This document shows, in pieces, positions 31,466-35,020 of a stretch of DNA of 64,000 nucleotides. This DNA is from Escherichia coli (GTDB taxonomy: Bacteria > Pseudomonadota > Gammaproteobacteria > Enterobacterales > Enterobacteriaceae), in NCBI RefSeq assembly GCF_030384885.1, contig NZ_CP128613.1; one strand, 5' to 3'. A program made the translations under genes and the position numbers. The notes under the pieces are model-generated. The model ran no database searches and was not told the DNA's origin. It worked only from the letters and a program-made list of their open reading frames with translations. Every line of letters starts with the position of its first letter. Within the stretch, counting starts at the first letter, position 1.

Positions 31466-31801
31466 TTATATAATCGCCATCACTTTCCAGGCGAGCCCAT
31501 AGGCCAGCGCACTAAGCAGTGTTGGGATGATAATGCTGCGTGTTTTATAGAAACTGGCACCCAGTACCGCGAAGCCGACCAGAGTGGGCACGAAACGGCG
31601 TGTATCGTGCATCACTTCTGGTGCGGTAGAGACAACCAGCAGAGCGCATATCGAGGCGATGCCAATGGTGTCGAGCAAAATACCTACCGCGCCACGTTTG
31701 GTTGGGCGGGCATTACCCACACGCAGGCGCAGCGGCAAATAGCGGAAGCAATAATTCGCCGCGCCAACCAGTAACCCAAGCAGCAGAACCTCATAGCTCA
31801 T
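31466..31801 (-). CDS. ygaH: Branched-chain amino acid (valine) exporter small subunit, AzlD-like
   Basis: Track ORF 111 aa, hydrophobic; overlaps ygaZ. Confidence 0.8.
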
Positions 31802-32528
31802 CGGGCGCTCCTTGCCAGAATGCCTGGATTAACGCAGTGAGGCAGCCACAGACAATGCCTGCCAGAATGGCGACGGGAATAGAAAATAGCGTTACGCCTG
31901 CAAGGGCACCAACTAACGCTGCGGTAACGCAAAGAGATTGTTTGCGCTGGAAAGAGGCGAGCAGGAAACTCATAAAGAGTGCCGGAAGCATAAAACCTAA
32001 TGCTGCTTCAACGGCGGGATATCCTTGCAGCAAGCCGCTGCCGGAGAATGCCCCTATTACCGTACCAAATACCCACGATGACCATGAACTGAAGGCAATG
32101 CCGATCATCCAGTTCTCGCTCCAGCGGCGATTATTGCGTACCAGTTTTGCGGTTGCGGCGGCAAAAACCTCATCCGTCAGGCCAAACGCCCACAGGGCAG
32201 TTTTCGATTTTTGCAGACGCTGAATAATACGGCTACGCAGTGACGGGCCATACAAAACATGGCGAACATCCATTGCCATGACGGTCAGTGCAGCAACCCA
32301 CAAACTACTCCCGGCTGCCAGCATCGCGGTAATGACGAACTGGCTCGCGCCTGCATAAATGATGCAGGAGAAAAAAACGCTTTCGAGAGGAGAGAATCCC
32401 AGACGGGTCGCATTCAGACCAAACGCAAAGGCCACCGGAATATAACTAATAACAATCGGTAAACTGTCTTTGCATCCTTCCATGAAGGTCGCCGAACCAG
32501 GAGCAGGCTGTGGAGTAGGGCTTTCCAT
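31791..32528 (-). CDS. ygaZ: Branched-chain amino acid (valine) exporter large subunit, AzlC-like
   Basis: Track ORF 245 aa, hydrophobic; operon with ygaH. Confidence 0.8.
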
Positions 32529-32651
32529 AGAGTGTACGCTTAACGATTGTTAATATTATAAATAGACTGAATGAATATCTTAACCTTATCAGACTGATGG
32601 GCTTCTTAACACCCTTATAAGTGTAAAGCCACGAAAACGGTTGCTGATTGC

Positions 32652-33836
32652 TTAAATTGCGGCTTCCTGACGATGAAAACCTCGCCACCAGACCAGTAAG
32701 TTAACCAGGGCAATCGTCGCGCCAGCCAGACAAACGCCAGCCCAACCGCCATGTTGCCAGGCTGAGGCTGAAATTAGCGAACCGGCGGCACCGCCAATGA
32801 AGTAGCTGGTCATGTAACCTGCGGTCAGGCGATTACGCGCATCAGGGTGTATTCGATAAATTACCGTCTGGTTAGTGATATGCACGCCCTGCACGGTGAG
32901 ATCCAGCACCAGGATGCCGATAATCAAGGCCAGTACGGAAGTGTGTCCAAACCAGATAGCCAGCCATGAAAGTAACAGCAGCAGCAGGCCGAAAGTTGTG
33001 GTGAGGTGTGATTTGCCCTTATCGGCAAAACCGCCCGCCGGACGAGCGCCCAACGCTCCGGCAGCTCCCGCGAGTCCAAACAGACCAATTACGCCATCGC
33101 TGTAATTAAAAGGCGGAGCGGCGAGCAAAAAGGCCATTGAGGTCCAGAGAATGCTGAAGTTGGCAAAGGTCAGGCAGCCCAGCAACGCGCGGGTGCGCAG
33201 AATTTTATCGCTGATAAACATGCTGAAAACGGAACCAAGCAACTGTGGGTAGTTGAGGTGGGTTTCTGATTTCATTTGTGGCAGACCACGCCATAATGCC
33301 AGCGCCATCAGTGCCATTAACACCGAGGCAACCCAAAAGACGGTGCGCCAGCCGCCGAGGTTTGCCAGCAACCCGGCAACGGTTCGTGCCAGCAAGATCC
33401 CCAACAGCAGCCCGCTCATAATGGTGCCGACCACTTTGCCGCGTTTGTCCGGTGAAGCCAGCGTCGCTGCCAGCGGAACCAGAATTTGTGCCACGACCGA
33501 GAATAAACCGGTTAATGCCGTACCGAGGATCATCATCGCCAGCGACTGACTGCTGGCGGTAATCAACATACCGCCCGCTGCCAGTAAGGTCATCGAGACA
33601 ATCAGGCGGCGGCGTTCAAACATATCACCGAGGGGAACAAGAAACAGCAGACCTGCGGCATAGCCCAACTGCGCGGCGGTAACAATAAAGCCCGCCGAAC
33701 TGGCGGAAAGGGAAAAGTTACGCGCGATGGTGTCGAGTAATGGCTGGGCGTAATAGTTACTGGCTACCGCCAGACCGGTGGCGATAGACATCAGCACGAT
33801 CAGTGCCGGGCTAAGCTCATGATTAGGTTTAGTCAT
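32652..33836 (-). CDS. ygaY: MFS transporter, apparently intact
   Basis: Track ORF 394 aa uninterrupted, 12-TMS-like; position between ygaZ and proX. Confidence 0.7.
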   Translation of the reverse strand: MTKPNHELSPALIVLMSIATGLAVASNYYAQPLLDTIARNFSLSASSAGFIVTAAQLGYAAGLLFLVPLGDMFERRRLIVSMTLLAAGGMLITASSQSLAMMILGTALTGLFSVVAQILVPLAATLASPDKRGKVVGTIMSGLLLGILLARTVAGLLANLGGWRTVFWVASVLMALMALALWRGLPQMKSETHLNYPQLLGSVFSMFISDKILRTRALLGCLTFANFSILWTSMAFLLAAPPFNYSDGVIGLFGLAGAAGALGARPAGGFADKGKSHLTTTFGLLLLLLSWLAIWFGHTSVLALIIGILVLDLTVQGVHITNQTVIYRIHPDARNRLTAGYMTSYFIGGAAGSLISASAWQHGGWAGVCLAGATIALVNLLVWWRGFHRQEAAI

Positions 33837-33939
33837 TATTTTTGTTCATCAGGTGATGATTAAGCTGGAAATCAATAATAGCGGATGTTGATGAATATGG
33901 GATGAAAGATAGATTGTTGAAATGTGCGGTGTGGTTTGC

Positions 33940-34018
33940 AGGCATGATAAGACGCGGCCGCGTCGCATCAGGCATTGTGTACAGAGCGGCGGATGAGGCA
34001 AAAGCGCCTTATCCGCCC
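33940..34018. repeat. REP/BIME palindromic elements between ygaY and proX
   Basis: gcatgataagacgcggccgcgtcgcatcaggc and ggcggatgaggcaaaagcgccttatccgccc. Confidence 0.75.
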
Positions 34019-34027
34019 GAATAAAAA

Positions 34028-35020
34028 TTACTTCTGCGCTGCCAGCGCCTCATTCACCCAGCCATCGAACTGCTGCTGGTGGGCTTTGATCCAGCCATCA
34101 ACGTGGCCCTGGATATCGCCTTCTGAGGCTTTGCCGTCATGCATGATGGCGTTCTGGGCGTTAATGTCTGCCACCGGCAACTGCATAATGGCAAATAGTT
34201 TGGCTGCCGCCGGGTTTTTCTCGGCCCAGGCTTTGTTGGCAACGATATGCATGGTGCTGACCGGGAAGCCATAATTCGCACCATTCGGCAGTTTAGTGTC
34301 GGCGTTTTTATCGCCCGGCAGTGCGGAGAACGGCACCTGCAACCAGACGACATCTTTGCCCGGCTTCAGTTCGTTACTCACCCAGTACGGCGTCCAGGTG
34401 TAGTAAAACACCGGCTTACCCTCTTTGTAACGACTGATGGTGTCAGCCATCATCGCTGCGTAGTTCCCCTGATTATGCGTCACGGTATTGGTCAGTTCAT
34501 ACGCTGCAAGCTGGTGGTTGATCGCACCTTCGCAGCCCCAGCCTGGGTTACAGCCAGTCAAATCTGCTTTACCGTCGCCGTTGGTATCGAACAGTTTGGC
34601 GATCTTCGGATCTTTCAGTTGCGCGATGTTGGTGATTTTGTACTGGTCGGCGGTTTTCTTATCGATCAGGTAACCCTGTGCCGCGCCGTTAACGAATACC
34701 CCTTCACGATAAAATTTCTTATCGCCACCGGCAGCTTCGTACATGTTGTCATGCAGCGGCGTCCAGTTCACGGCGGTGAAGGTTGCATCGCCGGAAGCAA
34801 GTGAGGTGTAGCCAACGTTGTAATCCACTTCGCTGGGTTTATTGACGGTATAACCTAATTTCTCCAGCGCGCGGCTGACCAGCAGCGTCTGGAAAGTTTC
34901 TTCGGTGATGGTGCTCTGAACCGGATTAACAGTAATGCCTTTGCCCGGCAGGTCGGCAGCAAAAGTTTGTGTAGAGATAAGCGTGGCAAACGCTGTCGCA
35001 AAAAGTACGCTATGTCGCAT
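34028..35020 (-). CDS. proX: Glycine betaine/proline ABC transporter periplasmic binding protein
   Basis: Track ORF 34028..35062; start refined to [21 protein letters not shown] (signal peptide). Confidence 0.9.

Follow-up and report, generated by a model that had tools for sequence, protein, structure and literature searches.

The open reading frame at positions 32652-33836 (minus strand) of the window, the 64,000-nt stretch of Escherichia coli DNA analysed here, is a normal intact allele of ygaY, which is already annotated in RefSeq and not new. With a probability of roughly 0.9 we consider that ygaY encodes an MFS carrier maintained by selection, that the window holds a normal allele of it, and that K-12 is the exception as the result of a recent 7-bp deletion. 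What is added here is the exact lesion in K-12, its frequency of approx. 6.5%, and the description of a protein family without the classic antiporter motifs.

The intact ygaY frame

The ORF listing gave a single uninterrupted frame at 32652..33836 on the minus strand, starting with ATG and comprising 394 codons and a stop. ORF, Pfam, AlphaFold2 (AF2) and annotation agreed on an intact CDS for a 12-TM MFS transporter; Pfam MFS_1 (PF07690) matched the protein with 138.5 bits, the cut-off being 33.4 (E 3.3e-40). Aligned to the 1185-nt genes of O157:H7 86-24, Nissle 1917, BL21(DE3), an ST69 strain and Citrobacter, the frame was colinear and free of gaps and stops. The AF2 model was confident over the full length of the protein, from which we concluded that no frameshift had been overlooked. 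A sequence-only reading of this DNA had claimed one unbroken 394-aa MFS ORF, and the ORF listing, the Pfam match and the structural model bear this out. Between the ORF and WP_000165707.1, the 'MFS transporter' annotated in E. coli 2013C-4282, identity is 100%, and a 1501-nt region including ygaY also shows 100% identity to this strain.

The lesion in K-12

The K-12 reference NC_000913.3 carries the annotation 'pseudogene ygaY b2681' with a length of 1178 nt, and on another MG1655 assembly PGAP describes ygaY as 'MFS transporter, frameshifted'. That ygaY is a pseudogene in K-12, as stated in the sequence-only reading, was therefore correct. The K-12 gene (b2681; once split into ygaX/ygaY) shares locus and neighbours with the window, and the window gene belongs to the same orthologue group by its position between proX and ygaZ, by approx. 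96% nucleotide identity to K-12 and by being colinear with it except for a 7-bp indel.

Pairwise alignment of the two copies revealed this indel as the sole length difference, a deletion in K-12 at CDS nt ~255-261. It is the inactivating lesion, and the K-12 ORF is not intact, whereas the window copy is unbroken. The deleted bases (GGCAGCG in coding sense) are found in the window at 33576..33582 (minus strand), in codons 85-87; GGC repeats on either side leave an uncertainty of about 3 nt in their exact position. The site falls within TM3, which corresponds to helix 75-94 of the AF2 model. Past the junction the K-12 frame continues for three out-of-frame codons and then meets a stop, and as the lesion lies in TM3 the predicted product would comprise no more than two and a half helices. 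In addition, K-12 and the window differ by 38 codon changes that are synonymous and 2 that are not. Between K-12 and BL21 we counted 11 synonymous and 0 nonsynonymous changes, which argues for a recent inactivation in K-12. An intact ygaY is the ancestral state, and the loss of the 7 bp, a deletion at the GGC microhomology that flanks them, is specific to the K-12 lineage.

It is through this frameshift that ygaY is known as a pseudogene. One study describes the K-12 gene as cryptic and as having nine in-frame stops (10.1101/2023.07.10.548347); its deletion serves as a pseudogene control (10.1101/072470) and the gene as a neutral integration site (PMC11731478); ygaXY is an older name covering both halves (PMC3946193). 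All 'ygaY' papers found in our literature search dealt with the K-12 pseudogene, the H-NS bridge or the use as integration site. The search returned no paper on the intact YgaY protein, and nothing for the Salmonella tag STM2812.

Intact and broken alleles across E. coli

Complete E. coli genomes were searched with a 100-nt query spanning the K-12 junction, with a match defined as at least 99% identity. The K-12 junction was present in 353 of 5417 genomes (6.5%). To the remaining 5064 genomes the query aligned with a 7-nt gap over a 107-nt span, which corresponds to the undeleted form, and the reciprocal query with the undeleted form agreed with these counts. Junction carriers that were checked turned out to be K-12, laboratory derivatives of it, or identical to it; among them, strain 11202 and the transconjugant THB42-F3 matched K-12 at 2500/2500 positions over the ygaY locus. 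As far as checked, the 7-bp deletion is confined to the K-12 lineage.

At least 80% of ygaY was covered in 5413 of 5426 genomes. When a CDS-only query was used and 60 records were taken evenly down the ranking, 55 copies had a length of exactly 1185 nt, four had 1178 nt and one had a large deletion. Among the four K-12-type records are one O16:H48 strain and one described as 'laboratory developed'. All 11 of the 1185-nt copies whose annotation was checked are annotated as intact (2013C-4282, O157:H7 86-24, Nissle, BL21(DE3), ST69, E2348/69 and five others). From the junction counts, the 1185-nt lengths and the intact annotations we concluded that intact ygaY is the species norm, found in approx. 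93% of complete E. coli genomes, and that K-12 and its derivatives are the exception; intactness among the 5418 genomes was gauged by junction, length and spot checks.

Inactivations other than that of K-12 exist but are sporadic. The urinary isolate S115 carries an independent 19-bp deletion (CDS nt 252-270, corresponding to 33567..33585 on the minus strand of the window), and PGAP labels the gene as frameshifted. The frameshifting deletions of K-12 (7 bp) and S115 (19 bp) overlap in one GC-rich stretch of TM3. We considered a mutational hotspot or phase variation at this site and rejected it, since the CDS-wide spread gave no more length variants apart from one large deletion. S115 surfaced only via a query aimed at the deletion site, so ascertainment bias is possible and no hotspot is claimed. 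In E. coli PCP06021 from Galapagos seawater (L008 2696-3158) a deletion removed all of ygaZ and approx. 87% of ygaY, fusing ygaH to the 5' end of ygaY, so that this strain is left without a valine exporter subunit and without YgaY.

Conservation and selection

Full-length orthologues of 394 aa were found in Shigella, E. fergusonii, E. albertii, E. marmotae and Citrobacter, each named just 'MFS transporter'. The Citrobacter orthologue shows 94% amino acid identity and lies in an identical gene order, nrdF-proVWX-MFS-azlC-azlD-marR-emrAB. ygaY is thus a core-genome gene of Escherichia and Citrobacter. Nei-Gojobori estimates of dN/dS ranged from 0.008 to 0.05 among the E. coli alleles; the comparison with Citrobacter, at a dS of about 1, gave about 0.04. 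These values indicate strong purifying selection on ygaY. From this selection we infer that YgaY is functional. The sequence-only reading had proposed that an intact copy would make the transporter functional in this lineage; its functional half is supported by the purifying selection, while the lineage-specific half does not hold, the gene being intact in approx. 93% of complete E. coli genomes.

The wider YgaY family comprised 1147 clusters at 50% identity (E <= 1e-30). One protein from an ENA metagenome (P0001, 596 aa) outscored the self-match of YgaY with 1096 bits at 73% identity; it has the appearance of a ygaY partly duplicated in tandem, or of an assembly artefact.

Fold, motifs and direction of transport

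A family alignment of 92 sequences with 35-56% identity was the basis of the AF2 model and of all residue counts given below. The model (pLDDT 94.9, pTM 0.93) contains twelve TM helices and a linker helix, with TM1-6 at residues 10-184, the linker at 196-209 and TM7-12 at 211-393. It thus has the two bundles of six helices with a cytoplasmic linker between them that are expected for the MFS fold. Foldseek against the PDB gave a probability of 1.00 to many solved MFS structures. The top matches were SotB (TM-score 0.84-0.89), followed by MdfA and NorA, at 15-18% identity.

Of the classic MFS motifs, motif A (GxLaDrxGrkxxl) was found in the TM2-TM3 loop as P68-L-G70-D71-M-F-E-R75-R76-R77-L, with P-L-G-D-M-F-E-R-R-R encoded by codons 68-77 at 33606..33635 (minus strand). 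It is well conserved in the family (P68 in 92/92, G70 in 84/92, D71 in 91/92, R75 in 76/92 and R76 in 70/92), and a symmetric copy, G268..D272, is located in the TM8-9 loop. Motif C, G(x)8G(x)3GP(x)2GG, was absent from TM5, which reads G142-LLL-G146-I-L-L-A-R151-T-V-A-G155 and is alike in the family consensus. Also absent was the arginine of motif B (lxxxRxxqGxgaa) in TM4, where YgaY has T106 and the family S, L or T; only G110 is kept (89/92). In the place of the motif C 'GP..GG' of DHA1 exporters stands R151 (codon at 33384..33386, minus strand), a near-invariant arginine (91/92) in the middle of the TM5 helix 132-161, and G146-I147 are found instead of GP. A conserved acidic residue, D312 (83/92; codon at 32901..32903, minus strand), is located in the middle of TM10 (helix 301-329) and is a candidate protonation or substrate site. 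R336 is conserved in 91 of 92 sequences.

Comparison with curated families did not place the protein any further. YgaY stayed far below the cut-offs of the SotB equivalog NF002921 (63.4 bits vs 401), of Bcr/CflA TIGR00710 (48.1 vs 200.9) and of the aromatic acid:H+ symporter TIGR00895 (77 vs 418.55, and over residues 20-187 only). None of the 92 sequences of the family alignment reached any NCBIfam cut-off, and assignment to a curated family was rejected for YgaY and its 91 relatives alike. The best full-length profile matches were SotB-like PRK03545 (63 bits, the best of them), Cmx/CmrA and Bcr/CflA, all far below their cut-offs. SotB (PDB 6kki/6kkk/6kkl), MdfA and NorA share the 12-TM MFS fold with YgaY at TM-scores of 0.79-0.89, and YgaY has motif A; in contrast to them it lacks the motif C 'GP' and the motif B arginine, and R151 and D312 are conserved residues of the YgaY family's own. 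As motifs B and C are absent and the family cut-offs are not reached, YgaY was filed as an MFS member and ygaY orthologue, and not as a DHA1, SET or Bcr member. Without the TM5 'antiporter' motif and a curated family it stays an orphan transporter, in agreement with the sequence-only reading, which had assigned it no substrate.

YgaY, an inner-membrane protein, most likely works as a secondary carrier by rocker-switch alternating access, coupled to an ion, probably H+. The membrane-embedded R151 in TM5 and D312 in TM10 are candidate coupling or substrate residues, and motif A would gate the conformational switch. Export appears somewhat more likely than import, because the full-length sequence relatives and the structural relatives are efflux carriers (SotB, MdfA, NorA, Bcr/CflA, Cmx). 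The best-surviving alternative is that YgaY is an importer, an H+ symporter for an organic acid or a similar nutrient. The top-scoring NCBIfam match, the 77 bits to the aromatic acid/H+ symporter TIGR00895, speaks for it, as do the best PDB sequence match, the glucose symporter GlcP (4lds), and the lack of the antiporter motif C. However, the TIGR00895 match is limited to the N-terminal half, and the symporter matches altogether stay within residues ~20-190, the part that forms the generic, motif A-bearing N-domain of MFS proteins, whereas the exporters match YgaY over the full length and lead the structural matches. We regard import as a plausible second choice, with the odds tilted against it.

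Upstream region and expression

The proX-ygaY spacer measures 191 nt in the window and in K-12. It is longer in BL21 (291 nt), where one more REP copy is present, and in an ST69 strain (452 nt), where the insert is a different one. Between the proX stop and ygaY lies a REP/BIME-type palindromic element with inverted repeats (33941..34018, minus strand), which is variable between strains. The Rfam model naRNA4 (CssrE, RF02564) scored 59.2 bits on this element, just under its gathering score of 59.5 (E 9e-9). The ~105 nt directly upstream of ygaY (33837..33940, minus strand) are conserved across E. coli, as seen in an alignment of 6 E. coli strains plus Citrobacter, and presumably hold a weak or regulated promoter of ygaY together with the translation start region.

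A six-codon mini-ORF, ATGAACAAAAATAATGACTAA (MNKNND*), was noticed at 33837-33857 (minus strand), its end overlapping the ATG of ygaY. The E. coli strains share it but Citrobacter does not, and no Shine-Dalgarno sequence is evident. On these two grounds it was rejected as a real uORF and is probably due to chance.

We also considered whether the intact gene could be effectively silent, bound by H-NS, equipped with a poor promoter and contributing nothing under ordinary conditions. A consensus scan of the 191-nt spacer found no strong sigma-70 match, and inspection by eye upstream of ygaY gave nothing better than a weak TATTAT whose -35 element is poor. In K-12 a minor H-NS ChIP peak on ygaY bridges to the proU DRE (10.1101/2023.07.10.548347); with H-NS bound there, expression of ygaY may be low or conditional. 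The transcripts in K-12 are low and rise mainly by read-through from proVWX after osmotic shock, but they are detectable (10.1101/2023.07.10.548347). Against a silent gene stands also the conservation of the 105 nt upstream within E. coli, and a dN/dS of 0.01-0.05 sustained over a dS of about 1 requires that the protein is made and useful in some natural condition. We therefore consider a cryptic ygaY unlikely.

Neighbourhood and possible functional ties

Upstream of ygaY, on the same minus strand, lie proX (34028-35020) and further upstream proW and proV. Downstream follow ygaZ (31791-32528) and ygaH (31466-31801), likewise on the minus strand, and past these emrR/mprA and emrA. The order proVWX-ygaY-ygaZH agrees with the location between ygaZH and the proU operon given in the sequence-only reading. 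Downstream of ygaY a sigma-70 promoter for ygaZH, TTAAGA-17-TATAAT, was identified at 32555..32583 (minus strand) with 10/12 consensus positions. Genomic SELEX has placed a constitutive RpoD promoter with the same hexamers in the interval from (ygaXY) to ygaZ (PMC3946193). We concluded that ygaZH has its own promoter.

This setting raises the idea that YgaY is tied to its neighbours, for example as a valve that releases compatible solutes or branched-chain amino acids and is co-induced with proVWX by read-through on osmotic upshift. The gene order proVWX-ygaY-ygaZH is kept in Citrobacter, and K-12 ygaY transcripts increase after hyperosmotic shock, which was put down to read-through (10.1101/2023.07.10.548347). 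Yet synteny says little when the enterobacteria compared are so close, proX and ygaY are set apart by a REP element and a terminator region, ygaZH is driven by its own promoter, and the authors of the K-12 study found ygaY overall insulated from proU (10.1101/2023.07.10.548347). Guilt by association also failed on a wider view: three distant family members (50-57% identity) were found in contexts without ProU or AzlCD genes, and these contexts were unlike each other. We take the adjacency to proU and ygaZH as synteny of the lineage and not as evidence for a shared function, and a functional tie as quite improbable. The most specific form of it, in which YgaY is a physiologically relevant efflux valve beside YgaZH, osmotically co-induced and exporting a metabolite of the compatible solute or amino acid type, is more doubtful still. 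If it were true, one component of the wild-type response would be lacking in K-12, the very strain used to work out osmoregulation.

The allele in the window

The YgaY of the window carries leucine (L278) and isoleucine (I394) at two positions that are H and N, respectively, in most E. coli. Damaging substitutions were looked for in this allele and discarded, as no change hits a conserved position of the family alignment. The allelic family of 394-aa proteins in RefSeq (WP_000165699.1, WP_000165714.1, WP_000165691.1 etc.), with members from E. coli, Shigella, E. fergusonii, E. albertii and Citrobacter, is 94-99% identical to it and equal in length and position, and apart from L278 and I394 the window protein differs from them in nothing of substance. 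That the ORF could be a disguised pseudogene, whether through a frameshift that escaped notice, a misassigned start or a harmful substitution, found no support in the two amino acid differences examined and is effectively refuted, because frame and length equal those of all orthologues including Citrobacter, the AF2 model of the full length is confident, L278 occurs also in Citrobacter, positions 278 and 394 are unconserved in the family, and the identical sequence is annotated as an intact protein in RefSeq.

The allele itself is unusually rare: over window positions 32530-34030, identity of at least 99% was seen in just 6 of 5418 complete E. coli genomes, the best being 2013C-4282 with 100%. 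Between the ygaY of the window and other E. coli alleles dS was 0.10-0.16, which points to a divergent lineage or to a segment acquired by recombination.

Implications

The intact ygaY in the window is neither surprising nor new and by itself matters little. What follows from the comparison is that K-12 is a poor reference at the ygaY locus. A transporter under selection, present in approx. 93% of E. coli, is missing from the main strain of functional genomics, including the Keio collection and fitness screens. Such studies treat ygaY as a 'neutral' control or integration site, a choice that would lose its neutrality in BL21, Nissle or pathogenic strains. YgaY is a legitimate orphan for efforts to deorphanise MFS carriers.
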